61,227 bases of DNA. Origin: an uncultured Thermoplasmatales archaeon. GTDB taxonomy: Archaea; Thermoplasmatota; E2; UBA202; DSCA01. Position 1 is the stretch's first letter, and every line of letters starts with the position of its first letter. The translations under genes and the position numbers were made by a program. Location of the stretch: assembly GCA_964606745.1 (NCBI GenBank), contig CAZSHJ010000004.1, forward strand, positions 1 to 61,227. The letters are read 5' to 3'. The notes below the pieces were generated by a model that did no database searches, was not told the origin of the DNA, and worked only from the letters and a program-made list of their open reading frames with translations. Positions 54,281-61,227 of the stretch are shown here, piece after piece.

Positions 54281-54398
54281 GATTTCGAATGTGAACGGAA
54301 TTATTAAATTGTTGGGGATTAATATTTTTTACTTTTTATTTTTACCCAAAATATCCCCAATTTCACCCACCAAATCAACGATAATATCGCTGATATAA

Positions 54399-54497
54399 TT
54401 TGGAGTAGATTTACAACACTACACATATCTTGATGAGAATGAGTTGAAGGAGATTTACAATAAAGTAATTCCCGATTATATGATAACCAAAGCATAA
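54399..54497 (+). pseudogene. Tyrosine-integrase 3' stub 1 (repeat Z1)
   Basis: My translation FGVDLQHYTYLDENELKEIYNKVIPDYMITKA* aligns with VDLRHYAYLDAGDLKKIYDKV at 60859-61014. Confidence 0.65.
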
Positions 54498-54519
54498 ATT
54501 TACATTATATCATATTCTT

Positions 54520-56046
54520 TTATGTAAATACTTGGACAGCATATTCTGTTATTGTTTGAGTTTTTTCTGTATCTGTTGTAAGAAGATTAAATCTCAGTAC
54601 TAAATCGTTATCGTCACCGTCGCATTCGATAATAGTGTTCAAATCTTGTGATGTTGCATCCCAAGTTAATCCTCCATCTGATGATACATCTACGGTTACT
54701 ATAGTATCGGTGGGTACATTAACTTCTGCAACTATAAAAATGGAGTTTATATCAGAATTGAATGCAAAACTGTTAGTCTGAATGATGCTATTTGAAAACT
54801 CGGCTTTATATGTTTCAATATTTGACGATTGTATAACAGGACTATAAGTGGTTACAAAAGCTATTGAACTTGAATAGATTGGCTTAAATTCTACTCCATT
54901 TGGTTCCATGCCTCGATCAATTGCGAAATAGCAAATATAAACCCAATGTTCTTGGATTGCGTCATAAACCCATAAGTATAAACGAGCATGTTGGGCCACA
55001 TCTCTGCACCCAATGTCTGCCGTAACTTTGCCAATCCAAGCTTCATCAAAATGATGCCTTCTAATTACTCGTACATCTGCACCCCATCCAACTCTTTCTT
55101 CCATTCCAGGTTCCGTTGAATGCGGTAGTACTGAATTAGAATTTTGACATATATATCTATCATAATCGTATGAGTGAATGTCAGCACTCCATTCAGCATT
55201 TGTTGCTCCACCTCCTTCGTTTGGCATACTATCTTTTACAGTAAATATTCCTTTGTAATTTGCATTCGTATTTCCAACATCTATTGTATTGAGTGCTCCG
55301 CTCTCCTGAGTCATGATGTCTACAGTTGCAGTGTCGTAATGATTGTGTATTTCTGTCAAGCCTATGCTCATAGTTTCTGATAGGTAGTAGCTGTTCCACA
55401 AAGTTTGGATTATGTTCTGTAAATGTGCCGTTAAATAATCCTCATCTACAGGTCCTGCTGGTCCCATCGGTCCAGTATCTCCTGTACTGCCTTTATCTCC
55501 CTGCAGACCTTGCTCTCCTTGAGGTCCAGTTTCTCCCTGCAGACCTTGCCCTCCTTGCGGTCCTTGAGGTCCAGTATAACCCCTTGGTCCTCGCAGTCCT
55601 GTTTCGCCTTGAGGTCCAGGTGGTCCTCGAGGTCCTTCGGGACCAATTAATCCTGTTGGGTTTCCCATCCAGTTTCCATTGCTATCGATTATGATATTTC
55701 CATTTATTGCAAGATTACCAAATATATCCAGTTTGGCATTTGGATTGTTTGTCCCAATGCCTACATTGCCTTCTGGTATTAAGAACAAATTTGGTGGATT
55801 GCTCCAGTAATCCCAGTCTTTGTTGAGTATTCTATAATTTGGCAATGATGTAGAATCTTCAGACTCACCCATTTTATTTACTTCTTCCTGCAAGTTTTGA
55901 AAGACATTGTTTTCTGTTTCACTTTCCGATATAATACTATCTCTTTCTACATCGTTTTTATCTCCGTTCATTGTTCCTGCTATTGGTAAAACAACAGAGA
56001 CAATGAGTACCATACAAACTACTATACCCAATTTTTTTGCCATCAT
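54520..56046 (-). CDS. Exported collagen-repeat protein with phage tail-fibre-like motifs
   Basis: Signal peptide; [16 protein letters not shown]; 23 G-X-Y triplets (55447-55653); C-terminal VSSDGGLTW beta domain. Confidence 0.8.
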
Positions 56047-56251
56047 GTTTTCTCCCCAATAAGCAATATAAAACCAAAGATAAATCTTTTGTATAGCACA
56101 ATTGACAACTCAACTATAGTTAACAAATAGTTTTCAAGATATTCCGAAATAGTTACGCCAAACAGATGCAACTTAACTATCTGTTCCTAAAGAATTTTTT
56201 TAAGGCTCATCGATTTTTGTTTTTCTTAACTTTTTAGCCATGTATTAAATT

Positions 56252-56382
56252 GGCAGAATGTATCAAATAATTTCAGTCTACAAGATATACTGCCCCGTGG
56301 AGTCTGGTTTCCCTCTTGAAGCAATGCCCTTGTGACAGGATGCTCATCCAGTTAATGATGTAACTTTTTATCTAACTTTATT
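56252..56382. repeat. Intergenic repeat X, copy 1
   Basis: Shares TATCAAATAATT, ACAAGATATA, GCCCCGTG, TTTCCCTCTTGAAGC and ATGTAACTTTTTATCTAACTTTATT with 58086-58217. Confidence 0.85.
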
Positions 56383-56389
56383 CTTGATT

Positions 56390-56496
56390 GTTACGAATCT
56401 AAGCAGGGGTTGGTATGATTACACCTTCTTGCCCATTTTTGGTGTTTTTCTTATCTGTTGGAATGGGTTATTTTGTAACATTATTGACATGGTTTT
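56390..56496. repeat. Intergenic repeat Y, copy 1
   Basis: 59-bp core 56406-56464 is 58/59 identical to 59900-59958. Confidence 0.9.
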
Positions 56497-56644
56497 CTGT
56501 CCTATAAGCAACTACATGGAATTTATGCATCAGTGCAGGAGAATTCGAGGTAAAGAAGAGAGCTTTAAAGGTGATATTTGATATAGTAGTGACAAAAATA
56601 AATAATTTAGGTCTTATGTTGTGCTGTATCTTATTGCCGAGTAT

Positions 56645-57013
56645 TTATTCAGCAACCTGTCTTACTTTATCACCTATTCTAACTGATGATTTTTCTTCTT
56701 CTTCTTTTTTTTCTTCTTCAGACACAATTAATCTATCCCTTATATTAGCCATACTTGTTAGAATGGGAAAGGTGGAATACGAAGGAGTTGTTGCTCTGCT
56801 CATTTTTTCTTGCACTTCTCTCACGACCACTCTTGCCTTTACTATCTCAATATTACCTAATACGTTCCCAGTATCAGGATCTTTAATAGAGCTGCCCTCA
56901 TCGTATATTATAAAAGTCATTCCTTCCTTAACTCCGTGCTCAAGTCCACGATTAATATAAACAGTATACTCGTCTAAAATTCTAGCAATCTTGCCCCTAA
57001 TTAATTCAGCCAT
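56645..57013 (-). CDS. FlgT-C-like beta-barrel protein
   Basis: VYINRGLEHGVKEGMTF, IKDPDTGNVLG, VVREVQEKMS. Confidence 0.65.
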   Translation of the reverse strand: MAELIRGKIARILDEYTVYINRGLEHGVKEGMTFIIYDEGSSIKDPDTGNVLGNIEIVKARVVVREVQEKMSRATTPSYSTFPILTSMANIRDRLIVSEEEKKEEEEKSSVRIGDKVRQVAE

Positions 57014-57052
57014 TTTATCATCCTTCGTAAACCAAGAAATAGGTCACATTTT

Positions 57053-58036
57053 TTAAATATTTCCCATCATCGATTTTGTAACAAATACGGTTTTTTCCAA
57101 ATCACGGATGTCTGTTCCTTTGAAGATAGTTGGTATATGAACATACAACCTATTGCTGAATGCAGCTAAAACGTTGTTATTAAGCAAAATGTTGTTTACC
57201 TTTTCTCCCCATATGTCCTTGGAATCATCATCACACATGTAATATGCTTGGGCAAGGTCATCACTTTTCTGGAGATGAAAAACTTTCAAAGTCCCGCAAT
57301 ATTGCTCAATGCCACTCTCAATATTGAATAATTTTAATATCATGCCATTCTTTAAATATTTGCAATTTTTAATTATGGCAATCGGATGCCCTTTATTAAT
57401 TATTCTAAATTCAATAACTTTCGCATCTTCTCCATCAATTTCTTTTTGATACTTTTTAGACCAAATAATAGCTTCATATACGCTTATCATTTCCATGATT
57501 AAATCAAGTTGATTTGGTAAGATTTTTTTCTTTATATACCCAATTCCTTCAATCCCAGTTAAACGAGATATTAAATTAATTGTAAGACCCCCCCAGTCAC
57601 AGTAGGGTATATCAATGTATCTTATAAATCCTAAATCTGAGGGAATATACCTCTTTCCATCAATTTTTTGTGATAAAACTAAAACAGGTTTTTGGAACCC
57701 ATAAGCCATACCCAATTCTAACATTACATTTTCTTTTATTACTGATGACCCACCATTTTTTATCGGAGTTATGTCAGCAATACATATCTGACAAGATTGG
57801 ATCTTCTTACATATATCGCAAAATAAGCCCTTTTCTGGTGATATTTGTCTATCCGCAGTAATTAATTCGAAATTATTCTTGCCATACCTTGTTTCGAGTC
57901 CTATCTCAACTGCCAACTCTCGTAGTTCTCTTTCTCCATCGAAGGGCTCAATTAGGAAATAATGATTGGGATTTATTTTGATAGGACTGTAAGGACATTG
58001 CCCAACAACTGGACAGACTTTTATTTCTTCGTACAT
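57053..58036 (-). CDS. Nucleoside-2-deoxyribosyltransferase-like (TIR-like fold) domain plus C-terminal beta-barrel
   Basis: FLIEPF, ICIADIT, NVMLELGMAYG, KPVLVL, IPSDL..IRYI. Confidence 0.7.
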   Translation of the reverse strand: MYEEIKVCPVVGQCPYSPIKINPNHYFLIEPFDGERELRELAVEIGLETRYGKNNFELITADRQISPEKGLFCDICKKIQSCQICIADITPIKNGGSSVIKENVMLELGMAYGFQKPVLVLSQKIDGKRYIPSDLGFIRYIDIPYCDWGGLTINLISRLTGIEGIGYIKKKILPNQLDLIMEMISVYEAIIWSKKYQKEIDGEDAKVIEFRIINKGHPIAIIKNCKYLKNGMILKLFNIESGIEQYCGTLKVFHLQKSDDLAQAYYMCDDDSKDIWGEKVNNILLNNNVLAAFSNRLYVHIPTIFKGTDIRDLEKTVFVTKSMMGNI

Positions 58037-58085
58037 TTTATGTTCAGTAAGTGAATGGATAACTATAACTTAATATTTTTTGATG

Positions 58086-58217
58086 GGCAGGTTATATCAA
58101 ATAATTCTAATTGACAAGATATAACGCCCCGTGTAGTTACTTTCCCTCTTGAAGCGAATGCTCTTTATGATGTGATGTCCGTTCAATGAATAATGTAACT
58201 TTTTATCTAACTTTATT
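58086..58217. repeat. Intergenic repeat X, copy 2
   Basis: Homologous to 56252-56382. Confidence 0.85.
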
Positions 58218-58273
58218 ACTTTACAAAATAGAGTTTTTAAAGATTTTCAAAGAGCATTATTTTATCAGATATT

Positions 58274-59701
58274 TTATCGGGTGTAGTGCATCAGCACTTC
58301 TGGTATTTCATGTATTACATCACTGGCTGTCATTCCATAACCTTTTTTTTCAAAGGCAAGATTCCCTGCAGTCCCATTCATAAATGCCCCCATTCTCGCC
58401 GCATTGTATGTGGGAACATCTTTTGATAGTAAAGAGCCGATGATACCCGATAATACATCACCCGTGCCGCCAACCGTCATGCCCTCATTGTGAATATGAT
58501 TTATTTTTAAGTTTTCCCCGTTACTTATTATATCCACTGCACCCTTCAGAAGTATCGTGCATCCTCTTCTTTTCGCCTCTTTTTTCACAATCTCTTTTCT
58601 CTCCTCGAGTTCGTCCGGCAAAGTTATACCGGTCAATTCCTTAAACTCGCCGGCGTGGGGAGTTATAACGATGTTGCCATTGCATTTCCTTTCACCAAAC
58701 GCCCGTATGGCATCTGCGTCTACAACCATTTTCTTATTCAGGGATATGCCCTCGTCAATTACATCTGCAGCAAATTCCTTTGTTTCCTCTCTGTTGCCAA
58801 GCCCCGGGCCAATCACAACTGCATCCACTCTTCCGAGAAATTCCCTTATCATCGGGCTATGCTCCGCCTGCAGAAAATCTCCGTCGAGAGGCATGACTAT
58901 CATGTCGGGCGAAAATGATGCAACCATCTTCCATACTCTCCGGGGAGTGAATACAAATGACAGATCAGCTCCGGTCTTCAATGCAGCCATAGCCGCCAGG
59001 GCAGGAGCACCCGTATACGATCCCCCGCCTATCGTAAGCACCGCACCGTTCTCCCCCTTGTGGGAATTCTCCTTTGGCACGGGATAATATATCATGTCTC
59101 CGGGGCCCACCGCCACCACCGCCGCCTCCGGTATACCTATGTTTGCCACAATTATTTTGCCGCTGTTTTCCTCGGTCATTCCGTCCTTTCTATCGTGGAA
59201 GGTTACGGTCGCATCGGGCTTTACGCTTATTTTACTCCCGAAGCCGGTCGGTATGTCCACGGAAACGACTCTGGAATGGCTTCCGTTTACAATTTTTACG
59301 ATTTCTCTGTACGGCTGCCGCAGTTCCCCGGATATGCCTATGCCGAGCATCGCATCCACAATCAGTTCGCTTTCATGCAATATTTTTTCAATCCCGCTCC
59401 CGTAGCGTTGGACAAAAATGCCCAGTTTTTTTACTTTCCTGAAATTCTTTCTGGCAAGCAACGACTTTGATTCCTTCAACATTACAACATTAACATTGCA
59501 CTTTCTCGAAAGGTAACGGGCGGCAACAAGCCCATCTCCTCCGTTGTTACCTGACCCGCATAAAACAGTACAGCATCTGCAATCGAATTTTTTGTTTATA
59601 AAATCAGCTACCGCCCTTCCTGCGTTTTCCATCAGCATCCCGGCAGGAACTCCATAAAAAGCCGAATTGGCATCAAGCACCTTGACTTCCGTCGGACGCA
59701 T
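58274..59701 (-). CDS. nnr: Bifunctional NAD(P)H-hydrate epimerase/dehydratase
   Basis: LMENAG, GSGNNGGDG, SHKGENG, TPHAGEF, GGTGDVLSG. Confidence 0.95.
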   Translation of the reverse strand: MRPTEVKVLDANSAFYGVPAGMLMENAGRAVADFINKKFDCRCCTVLCGSGNNGGDGLVAARYLSRKCNVNVVMLKESKSLLARKNFRKVKKLGIFVQRYGSGIEKILHESELIVDAMLGIGISGELRQPYREIVKIVNGSHSRVVSVDIPTGFGSKISVKPDATVTFHDRKDGMTEENSGKIIVANIGIPEAAVVAVGPGDMIYYPVPKENSHKGENGAVLTIGGGSYTGAPALAAMAALKTGADLSFVFTPRRVWKMVASFSPDMIVMPLDGDFLQAEHSPMIREFLGRVDAVVIGPGLGNREETKEFAADVIDEGISLNKKMVVDADAIRAFGERKCNGNIVITPHAGEFKELTGITLPDELEERKEIVKKEAKRRGCTILLKGAVDIISNGENLKINHIHNEGMTVGGTGDVLSGIIGSLLSKDVPTYNAARMGAFMNGTAGNLAFEKKGYGMTASDVIHEIPEVLMHYTR

Positions 59702-59823
59702 ACCAAAAAGTTAAACAGTGAGAATATATAACATTTGCATATTTATTTGATTTCTCCTAAAAATTAAGAGAACTGCAAGAGCGTGTTTTGGTAAAAAAAG
59801 AAAAATGCAAAAAGCAAGTGAGT

Positions 59824-59882
59824 TAATTTGGGGTAGATTTACAATAAAGTAATTCCTGATTATATGATAACCAAGGCATAAA
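59824..59882 (+). pseudogene. Tyrosine-integrase 3' stub 2 (repeat Z2) with a 44-bp internal deletion
   Basis: Matches 54396-54498 but lacks the segment between the two AGATTTACAA repeats (54407 and 54451). Confidence 0.7.
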
Positions 59883-59884
59883 GC

Positions 59885-59990
59885 GTTACGAAACTCAAGG
59901 GGGTTGGTATGATTACACCTTTTTGCCCATTTTTGGTGTTTTTCTTATCTGTTGGAATCGGCTAAATTGTAACACTAGTGACATGATTTT
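59885..59990. repeat. Intergenic repeat Y, copy 2
   Basis: Directly follows the Z2 stop codon; homologous to 56390-56496. Confidence 0.9.
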
Positions 59991-60091
59991 TAATGGTTTA
60001 ACAACTCAGGCTATTGCAGTATTATTATATAATGCAACCCTACAGATAAGACCATCTTGAATATCGTAATTTTAGAGAGTTTTACAAAAGT

Positions 60092-60328
60092 TCATTCATC
60101 GAGATATTCTTGTGTTAACCAGCCTTCTTTTTTCAAATCGTCAATAAATCCTTTCATATATTGTTTTGTATGTCCCCAGTAATGTGTCATGGTATCATAC
60201 AGTATTTCTTCCATTTCTGATACAAGTATTCTTTTACCCTCTCTCTTATAATCTATTTTTGTTTTATTAATAACCCTGATTAACGTATTACGTTTCATCA
60301 TTCTTGGCACTCTAGGCATGTTTATCAA
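60092..60328 (-). CDS. Small basic hypothetical protein
   Basis: 78-aa ORF, possibly wHTH-like (FIDDLKKEGWL). Confidence 0.5.
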   Translation of the reverse strand: MINMPRVPRMMKRNTLIRVINKTKIDYKREGKRILVSEMEEILYDTMTHYWGHTKQYMKGFIDDLKKEGWLTQEYLDE

Positions 60329-60408
60329 CCATAAATGCTTAGCGAAGTTAAATATTTTATTGATTAGAACCTGAATAAGTCCATTTCAATCAATCCAGCA
60401 ATTTTCCC

Positions 60409-60528
60409 CTAAAAAATATTGGGCGGAATATCCTTATTGAACAAAATCGAGAGCTTGCAGTCATCGCAGATGCCGTCAGGATTTGTTGTCTCGTTCACGC
60501 CGCAGATTATGCAGATGACTTTTGGCAT
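60409..60528 (-). CDS. 39-aa zinc-finger micro-protein (not in ORF track)
   Basis: MPKVICIICGVNETTNPDGICDDCKLSILFNKDIPPNIF*; CxxC-x11-CxxC. Confidence 0.6.
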   Translation of the reverse strand: MPKVICIICGVNETTNPDGICDDCKLSILFNKDIPPNIF

Positions 60529-60658: not shown

Positions 60659-60862
60659 ATGTCTGTTATAAAGAGTATAGAGCTCATAGGCAGCTCCCCG
60701 GACGGCTGGGAGGATGCTGTAAGGAATGCTATAGACGAGGCGAGAAAAACCATAAGAAACATAAGGAGGGTTACGGTAAGTGACCTCGAAGTGCTCGTGG
60801 AGGATGACCGGATAGTGTCGTACCAGTCAAAGGTAAAACTCTATTTCACCATAGAGGGATGA
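60659..60862 (+). CDS. Dodecin-family protein
   Basis: IELIGSSPDGWEDAVRNAI, KTIRNI, YQSKVKL. Confidence 0.92.
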   Translation: MSVIKSIELIGSSPDGWEDAVRNAIDEARKTIRNIRRVTVSDLEVLVEDDRIVSYQSKVKLYFTIEG

Positions 60863-61014
60863 AAGATATAGAAGGGGGAGATGCAGCCAAGGAGATTTTG
60901 ATGGGGCATTCATTGAAGGGCAGCGTTGATCTACGGCATTATGCTTATTTAGATGCGGGGGATTTGAAAAAGATTTACGATAAAGTTGGAGTAAAAATAG
61001 GCTTAGGGCGTTAA
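60859..61014 (+). pseudogene. Tyrosine-integrase 3' stub 3 (box II region)
   Basis: MKDIEGGDAAKEILMGHSLKGSVDLRHYAYLDAGDLKKIYDKVGVKIGLGR*; LMGH followed by a candidate catalytic Tyr (HYAY). Confidence 0.7.
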
Positions 61015-61038
61015 AGAAAACTGAACATATAAATTCAA

Positions 61039-61227
61039 ACTAATAGAGAGGGTATATACTTACAGATATAAATTAACTAACTAATAGAGAGGGTATATAC
61101 TTACAGATATAAATTAACTAACTAATAGAGAGGGTATATACTTACAGATTAGAATTAATAAGTAATAGATAAGGTATATACTTACAGATTAGAATTAATA
61201 AGTAATAGATAAGGTATATACTTACAG
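61039..61227. repeat. 40/41-bp minisatellite truncated by the window end
   Basis: Core GGTATATACTTACAG at 61051, 61092, 61133, 61173, 61213 (periods 41, 41, 40, 40); two unit variants. Confidence 0.95.

Follow-up and report, generated by a model that had tools for sequence, protein, structure and literature searches.

The right-hand part of a 61,227-nt stretch of DNA from an uncultured Thermoplasmatales archaeon (the window, which belongs to a 68,995-nt salt-marsh metagenome contig) carries three families of short repeats, Z, Y and X, set among genes of the minus strand. On balance, we lean towards the view that this region preserves the decayed remains of two integrative elements of a single Thermoplasmata type, which flank the chromosomal gene nnr, and that elements of this type hold replaceable cargo between Y-type sites. 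Y belongs to the backbone of an element with an integrase gene, variable cargo in related loci is flanked by Y-type sites, and the points at which homology between such loci breaks coincide with the arms of the sites. That cargo is actually exchanged at Y we infer from these sequence comparisons.

The repeats were first reported in an earlier note made from the letters of the window, and they are indeed real, non-chance repeats that lie at the places and in the order described there. Diagnostic sub-blocks of X, Y and Z each match exactly twice in the window, where shuffled sequence would give 0.00-0.02 matches, and counts of these patterns yield no Y copy beyond the two. According to blastn and a repeat search, X1 (56249-56382) and X2 (58083-58217) are ~78% identical with small indels, and Z1 (54444-54498) and Z2 (59828-59882) are 91% identical, with a second short common block at 54391-54416 and 59819-59844. 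Y1 (56388-56483) and Y2 (59882-59977) are 88-91% identical across 91-107 nt and agree at 58 of 59 core positions. A further X copy, X3, lies on the same contig ~1.1 kb beyond the window end (L024 11318-11610; L024 is the end of the window's contig, and its coordinates plus 50858 give window coordinates). X1 and X3 share an upstream block, W, of ~130 nt (W1, 56119-56248). The large open reading frames (ORFs) between 53.6 and 59.7 kb are all on the minus strand with X located 5' of them, as had been described; the gene set of the 54-60 kb region comprises MobB, a collagen-repeat protein, a FlgT_C-like protein of 122 aa, a protein of 327 aa and nnr. It also holds that Y2 follows the integrase stop of Z2 directly, starting within 4 nt of the in-frame stop codon (59879-59881). 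Of the two sequence features attributed to Y, the pair GTTACGAA...TTGTAAC is present in both copies and is conserved in the family, whereas the palindrome CACTAGTG is confined to Y2.

What links these repeats to a mobile element is Z, the 3' end of an integrase gene of which the final 27-32 codons survive (Z1 reads FGVDLQHYTYLDENELKEIYNKVIPDYMITKA up to its stop). The tyrosine integrase in question is XerA-like, and its remnants in the window keep only the last 15-45 codons. A 40-aa integrase tail, used as query in an initial protein search, matched fragments only; full-length relatives came from a HMMER scan of 1.8 billion representatives and from a second search. The scan gave 112 relatives of Z, about half of them short fragments and many of them proteins of 290-370 aa that match at the C-terminus. 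Pfam assigns PF00589 (Phage_integrase) clearly to these relatives, whose matches to the archaeal SSV-type family PF16795 are weak, near or below the cut-off (18-29 bits against 27). The nearest solved structures are XerA (PDB 5HXY, 4A8E), and a family profile run against PDB finds XerA, XerC-like proteins, XerD and a few phage and Int-protein integrases. Cluster P0115 ends in ...VDLQHYTYLDENDLKEIYDKVIPDCMITKA, nearly the same as Z1, and its 82-aa members are int(N) ORFs that read into a tRNA-Arg(CCT) gene (loci L036 and L037). An 86-nt core is common to these int(N) ORFs and to the int(C)-type genes of L030, L031 and L033; the int gene of L032 is uninterrupted (373 aa, P0204). The integrase of the relatives is thus SSV-type, with a chromosomal attachment site inside the 5' part of int and tRNA-Arg(CCT) as its target, and it represents an undescribed family that is XerA-like by sequence and SSV-type by behaviour. 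The split is seen in close relatives; the window copies are 3' stumps only, beside nnr and without a tRNA gene, and ARAGORN predicts no tRNA in the window or in the next 7.7 kb. The int(N)/tRNA-Arg junctions rule out that the short C-terminal int fragments stem from an SSV-type split near the 3' end. They also rule out Y as the chromosomal attP, because the attachment site of the integrase lies inside its own gene.

Z1 and Z2 share a 5' truncation point, GATTTACA, and the int remnant of L034 and L035, from another genome and another locus, is truncated at the same point. In the source metagenomes at least two further Z-Y junction variants, together with longer int reading frames, are found at the same depth as the genome, so the Z-Y family is multi-copy in the source population. 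Scans of IMG/VR (with X, Y and Z patterns, a gapped Y pattern, the integrase alone and the integrase profile) gave nothing, and phage and plasmid collections gave remote XerC-like matches only. As a separate observation, two contigs from other Joint Genome Institute metagenomes (L021 23-402, L023 247-643) carry a tRNA-Leu(CAG) gene followed within ~35 nt by a C-terminal fragment of 70-85 codons from the same integrase superfamily, and the DNA downstream differs between the samples.

In L030-L033, from four samples, the int stop is followed within 3-4 nt by AGCGTTACGAAA..GGGGTTGGTATGATTAT.., that is, by Y. Because L031 and L032 match the window at 83% identity through 59826-60086, Y has a conserved extension of ~110 nt. 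The site itself is ~95 nt long and bounded by 9-bp inverted arms, GTTACGAAA...TTTCGTAAC. All Y-type sites have an invariant TGGTATG, a G-run and a C-run, and an ACAGATA motif; a short palindrome, GGTAT-N4-ATACC, is discernible by eye in Y. The 14-20-nt segment bearing ACAGATA has opposite orientations in two classes of site (CTTATCTGTTGG versus CCAACAGATTAA); it is located at 56449-56462 and 59943-59956 in the window and at 2556-2575 in L032. A second Y-type site, Y', is found at L032 5961-6059, L033 5592-5679 and L024 15298-15393 (reverse strand), and shares sequence with the final codons of a conserved ~190-aa core gene on the opposite strand. A sequence model (R1) built from six sites (alignment A9) and run over 186 kb retrieves, at E <= 2e-10, Y1 and Y2, the Y after int in L031, L032 and L033, the Y' sites and two sites in L035, and nothing else. 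Pairs of Y-type sites in direct orientation flank cargo in L032 (2496-2592/5961-6059), L033 (1011-1105/5592-5679) and L035 (2461-2555/3177-3271). Single-strand DNA folding favours seven of eight Y-type sites over their shuffles (z -1.5 to -4.3); in the predicted folds the arms pair and enclose two inner hairpins.

The relation between sites and cargo is most evident where related loci are set side by side. In L032, int and Y are followed by a trio of minus-strand genes (193 aa, a 655-aa NosD/PKD protein and 100 aa), W-X, Y', the 186-aa core gene and further genes. L033 reads int, Y, a DndB-like gene, an NgoPII-type restriction enzyme, a methylase, Vsr, Y' and the core gene. The two loci are 93% identical through int into the left part of Y and then unrelated across the bay, and their homology restarts exactly at the left arm of Y'. 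L035 consists of a 31-codon int remnant, Y, one DUF5662 gene and Y; it is 99.6% identical to L034 over 2472 nt, up to the last base of the left arm GTTACGAAA, past which L034 continues into unrelated DNA with a different gene. As De Bruijn contigs are made from read k-mers, this local junction is real even if the longer linkage should be chimeric. Within the window contig, the X1/Y1 junction (TTTATTCTTGATT/GTTACGAA) equals the X/Y' junction of L032 (TTTATTGCTGACT/GTTACGAA), and the ends of X2, X3 and the Y2 extension are each followed by TTTACAAAA(GT) and then by unrelated DNA. Cargo thus varies between strains with boundaries at the sites, in one case between strains that are otherwise nearly identical, in line with the earlier note's proposal of interchangeable genes between repeats. 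Exact look-ups of the window's own cargo proteins return the same contig only, which offers no alternative contexts in this strain.

How might such a bay work? The intact element type, exemplified by L032, consists of int, a structured Y site of ~95-200 nt located 3-4 nt past the stop, a variable cargo bay on the opposite strand, W-X, a Y' that overlaps the 3' end of the conserved 190-aa gene, and the core genes. The two directly repeated Y-type sites would delimit a replaceable module, and recombination at the GTTAC-containing arms, or next to them, might add, remove or exchange cargo. A tyrosine recombinase is the likely, putative enzyme, and the DNA of the sites could conceivably be folded or cruciform when it reacts. 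The integrases of the window are stumps with one common truncation point, so that the cargo would be fixed unless mobilised in trans; units devoid of an intact integrase might be fossils or might be moved in trans. A bolder formulation would be that Thermoplasmata elements carry an integron-independent platform for gene capture, in which GTTAC-armed Y sites of ~95 nt with a three-way fold shuffle promoter-bearing cargo and Int-less delta-Z-Y units travel in trans. We regard this extension as doubtful.

The four copies of X (X1, X2, X3 and one in L032) are 70-79% identical and 135-300 nt long, and frame-breaking indels between the copies show that X is non-coding. Each copy directly adjoins a Y-type site or half-site on its cargo side, and three of the four directly precede the 5' end of a minus-strand gene. 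X contains an inverted repeat, GGCAG..TGTATC-N19-GATATAC..CTGCC, that is followed on the minus strand by a conserved TATA-like box (TTATA) and then, in X1, X3 and L032, by the W block of 100-170 nt. Folding the minus strand as RNA yields modest scores (z -1.5 to -2.2), and the main stem that X2 and X3 are predicted to form is interrupted in X1. X is absent from L033 and L035 and hence optional. It shows no sign of being a recombination site, and probably serves as a promoter or operator plus leader, in which the inverted repeat and TATA-like box would drive the first cargo gene. We rejected a reading of X as the region upstream of the integrase gene itself, since no X precedes int in L030-L033. 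The repeating unit proposed in the earlier note, integrase 3' end, Y, cargo and X, is found intact in the independent locus L032, where its cargo is on the minus strand and a second Y-type site closes the unit; its X end gives no sign of recombination and is missing from L033 and L035.

The same proposal placed nnr within a single cassette order, and here it has to be corrected. The closest genomes are Thermoplasmata metagenome-assembled genomes (MAGs), whose nnr products are 71-72% identical in amino-acid sequence. In two related MAGs (L014 and L015) nnr is the immediate, divergently oriented neighbour of NAC, with 33 nt between the genes, and because this adjacency is conserved, nnr is a chromosomal gene and not cargo. 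On the window's contig ~8 kb separates the two genes, with an exact 17-bp direct repeat, ATATAACATTTGCATAT, at either end of the additional DNA. The repeat is a piece of the ancestral NAC/nnr intergenic promoter, and each gene keeps a copy of the TATA-like region. The DNA from Z2-Y2 to a full 351-aa integrase, which sits beside NAC at that end of the insertion, is all inserted; it also holds X3 with its W block, a 180-aa tyrosine recombinase consisting of the catalytic domain only, and several uncharacterised genes. Since nnr is chromosomal, the window contains two decayed element copies flanking it rather than one continuous array, and the reading as cassettes or mini-elements survives in part: cargo does differ between L032 and L033 and between L034 and L035, and the single array has to be given up.

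The right-hand unit (Z2-Y2 with extension, small ORFs, dodecin, Z3, a tandem repeat, a 123-aa gene, W3-X3 and a half-site) is collinear with the int-Y-cargo-W-X-Y' order of L032. The core segment of the neighbouring element (L024 11611-15393, from the 180-aa recombinase to a 192-aa gene and a reversed Y') is inverted relative to L032. From the alignment, the inversion appears to start at the left arm of Y', next to X3, and it may have been site-specific. The gene for this small recombinase lies ~100 nt from the inversion junction. The left-hand unit comprises Z1, the collagen gene, W1-X1 and Y1, followed by a block (the 122-aa and 327-aa genes, X2 and a half-site) that abuts the 3' end of nnr; this second copy no longer has a Y behind Z1.

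Several observations weigh against a replaceable, Y-flanked bay. No joint between Y sites, excision circle, empty site or alternative junction is present in the assembled contigs. The loci examined number about five independent ones, all of them metagenome contigs that tend to break at Y. The homology break points fall at three different GTTAC-type motifs and at no fixed position. Covariation within Y is scant, the outer arms being nearly invariant, and Y2, with its degenerate right arm, folds no better than its shuffles (z +0.6). The left-hand unit of the window lacks recognisable outer boundaries as well as the Y after Z1. In addition, the int strand of Y has three T5 runs and the genes on either side converge on it; Y could accordingly be no more than a conserved terminator or 3' region.

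The main rival builds on this last point. The region might be an ordinary graveyard of integrated elements that lack any cassette mechanism, with Y as the shared terminator or 3' flank of the convergent int and 190-aa genes, X as a duplicated promoter region, and cargo turnover by non-specific recombination. Y would have been duplicated when foreign DNA was inserted through illegitimate or homologous recombination, and the repeats of the window would reflect local segmental duplication and decay. We consider this improbable, albeit a serious contender. The T-runs of Y and the overlap of Y' with the 3' end of the 190-aa gene fit it well, as do the clustering of all three X copies of the contig within 6.2 kb, the common truncation point of Z1 and Z2, which a duplicated remnant would have, and the want of excision products among the assembled contigs. 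Moreover, variable regions between conserved backbone genes are common in mobile elements. Against it, Y-type sites also stand between cargo blocks that adjoin no backbone gene (Y1 in the window, the second site of L035). The identity of near-identical strains stops exactly at an arm, and homology between L032 and L033 is back exactly at the arm of Y'. The truncation point of int recurs in a different genome and locus (L034/L035), and the layout of arms and hairpins is kept between Y and Y' at only ~55-60% identity.

Alternatively, Y, X or both might be non-autonomous transposons akin to miniature inverted-repeat transposable elements, or genes for structured non-coding RNAs, which seems quite improbable. 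The 9-bp terminal inverted repeats and ~95-nt length of Y would suit such a transposon, and the fold scores (down to -4.3 for Y-type sites, -1.5 to -2.2 for the minus strand of X) a structured RNA. Relative to int or the core gene, nevertheless, all 11 Y-type sites (from seven loci) are oriented and placed alike, with none elsewhere in the 186 kb, and the junctions we read are free of target-site duplications. Y is accordingly neither a randomly placed transposon nor a mere local duplication, the two outcomes that would have undone the original proposal, as its copies in independent loci are tied to int or the core gene. An RNA role, which the earlier note had also considered, is not borne out: neither the window nor the loci with a Y 20-mer (see below) match Rfam at gathering or relaxed thresholds, and the X stem shared by X2 and X3 is weak and not conserved in X1. 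A search of RNA runs returned no run holding the region.

A canonical integron with IntI, attI and attC cassettes is effectively refuted, in agreement with the non-integron character first proposed: an integrase gene does adjoin an array of site-flanked cargo, and integrons have been reported from archaeal MAGs (PMC9668308), but the nearest solved relatives here are XerA, no integron integrase structure is found at E <= 0.01, the arms read GTTACGAAA...TTTCGTAAC and not RYYYAAC...GTTRRRY, the sites lie past the 3' end of int and not on its 5' side, and the cargo blocks are multi-gene with their own upstream module.

The likeness to integrons is nonetheless considerable, in that a tyrosine recombinase gene stands beside variable genes separated by imperfectly palindromic, hairpin-forming sites of ~60-140 nt, that content changes at the strain level with break points at the sites, and that single strands fold with paired arms. 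Apart from integrase clade, site sequence and polarity, the differences are that the multi-gene blocks with X are transcribed opposite to int and that only one or two blocks occur per locus. Archaeal integrons described so far comprise IntI and attC (PMC9668308). The pdif modules of Acinetobacter plasmids and integrative mobile elements exploiting Xer (IMEXs) are likewise accessory modules bounded by repeated recombination sites and associated with the Xer-like recombinase family. Their pdif sites are 28-bp cores of the 11-6-11 type, however, whereas Y is ~95 nt long with arms ~75 nt apart and no dif-like core recognised by eye; Xer/dif systems are also bacterial, and the role of a recombinase at Y is putative. 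Cis-mobilizable elements (CIMEs) and accretion at the attachment sites of integrative and conjugative elements provide parallels for Int-less derivatives that keep their sites and for tandem decayed copies, yet CIMEs are bounded by chromosomal attL and attR, whereas Y sites are internal to the element and the chromosomal attachment site lies inside int. Phage morons are comparable as self-contained accessory transcription units between backbone genes, but are not flanked by repeated structured sites. Closest in integration are the SSV-type elements (SSV1, pTN3, TKV-like), with the same attP inside the int ORF and the same tRNA integration splitting int(N) from int(C) as in our relatives; PF16795 matches are weak, near or below the cut-off. 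Unlike the SSV-type elements, the present family is nearest to XerA by sequence and has no relative found among deposited phages, plasmids or IMG/VR, and the window itself has 3' stumps only and no tRNA. To our knowledge, no SSV-type element with a cargo bay flanked by Y and Y' has been described. If Y sites recombine, they would constitute a second way, independent of an integron integrase, for a tyrosine recombinase element to hold an exchangeable gene bay. This bay would belong to the Thermoplasmata, an abundant archaeal lineage of sediments, and in the loci seen it contains surface proteins and defence genes (DndB-like, restriction-modification, NDT/TIR-like). If Y is only a shared terminator, the region is a routine island of decayed mobile elements.

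Coordinates of the features of the window region and the evidence on which each assignment is based.
Feature	Position	Strand	Evidence
Z1, integrase remnant, last 32 codons plus stop, catalytic Tyr region (HYTY)	54399..54497	+	Translation; 89-91% nt identity to 3' ends of full-length int (L030-L033)
Short inverted repeat ATTTACAT-N16-ATGTAAAT, where relatives have Y after the stop; overlaps stop of collagen-like gene	54498..54529	.	Direct sequence reading
Cargo A, 508-aa secreted collagen-repeat protein	54520..56046	-	Pfam Collagen, E = 4e-9; GC 0.39 vs ~0.45 in surrounding genome
W1-X1 non-coding module (W 56119-56248, X 56249-56382)	56119..56382	.	73% to W3X3 (L024 11318-11576), 79% to X2, 70% to L032 5718-5993
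Y1, abuts X1 directly	56388..56483	+	Model R1, 85.7 bits, E = 3e-25; X-Y' junction as in L032
Cargo B, 122-aa FlgT_C-like (56645-57013) and 327-aa protein with sub-threshold NDT/TIR-like matches (57053-58036)	56645..58036	-	Pfam; GC 0.335
X2 (58078-58217), then half-site-like TTTACAAAA (58220-58228), then unrelated DNA and nnr stop	58078..58228	.	Alignment
nnr, NAD(P)HX epimerase/dehydratase, chromosomal	58274..59701	-	Pfam; adjacency to NAC in L014, L015
17-bp direct repeat ATATAACATTTGCATAT, left copy	59726..59742	+	Right copy L024 16846-16862 = window coordinate 67704; undisrupted site in L014/L015
Z2, integrase remnant with 5' boundary of Z1 and 44-nt internal deletion	59819..59881	+	Alignment, translation
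Y2 (59882-59977) plus extension to 60086, ending TTTAC/AAAAGT	59882..60086	+	R1, 88.9 bits; 83% over 262 nt to L031/L032
Z3, more divergent integrase C-terminal remnant (ORF 60859-61014)	60883..61014	+	Translation, protein comparison
40/41-nt tandem repeat, each unit with TTACAGAT	61027..61227, past window end	+	Repeat search

The inverted repeat at 54498..54529 gives no match to model R1 and may be a degenerate or deleted Y. A 58-aa ORF antisense to Z1 (54319-54495, minus strand) is without a family match and probably spurious. PADLOC finds no match in the window cargo. The tandem array directly after Z3 comprises seven full units (L024 10180-10462) and a partial first one, of two sub-types; its motif TTACAGAT is also present in Y, in the Y extension and in Y', and the units may be multiplied sites for a putative DNA-binding protein. 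In the neighbouring element, a 450-aa protein (L024 13282-14634) has a sub-threshold match to the prokaryotic STING domain and a Walker-A-like motif recognised by eye only, and a 123-aa membrane protein (L024 10528-10899) has a sub-threshold SLATT_5 match; both may be defence cargo.

An exact 20-mer of the Y core, GGGGTTGGTATGATTACACC, has no match in genome contigs. It occurs in 13 metagenome loci, all of which were rejected as relatives of Y: 11 belong to an unrelated RepO/HTH plasmid-like family that has the 20-mer alone in common with Y, and two lie beside major facilitator superfamily and esterase genes. At the size of the metagenome database about one match is expected by chance, and the pattern misses further Y copies, which differ at three positions; its presence in the RepO-like family is apparently fortuitous. 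That family (L002-L013) is itself a well-conserved plasmid- or phage-like one, with a RepO-like protein, a helix-turn-helix (HTH) protein, CTCCGTA iterons and, in L004, a 2.9-kb tandem unit.

Elsewhere in the window, two pairs of intergenic repeats (25157-25209/38225-38277 and 34395-34424/38186-38215) are 90-92% identical and lie beside low-GC stretches (24-34 kb and 38-42 kb), which may be other foreign islands with common regulatory DNA. A 33-nt segment located upstream of MobB (54303-54335) is found again in contigs from five runs, outside the window's own contig. Finally, a contig of the same depth joins 60073 to 60449, omitting 375 nt; with only 28 nt on one side of the junction, it probably represents a paralogous locus.

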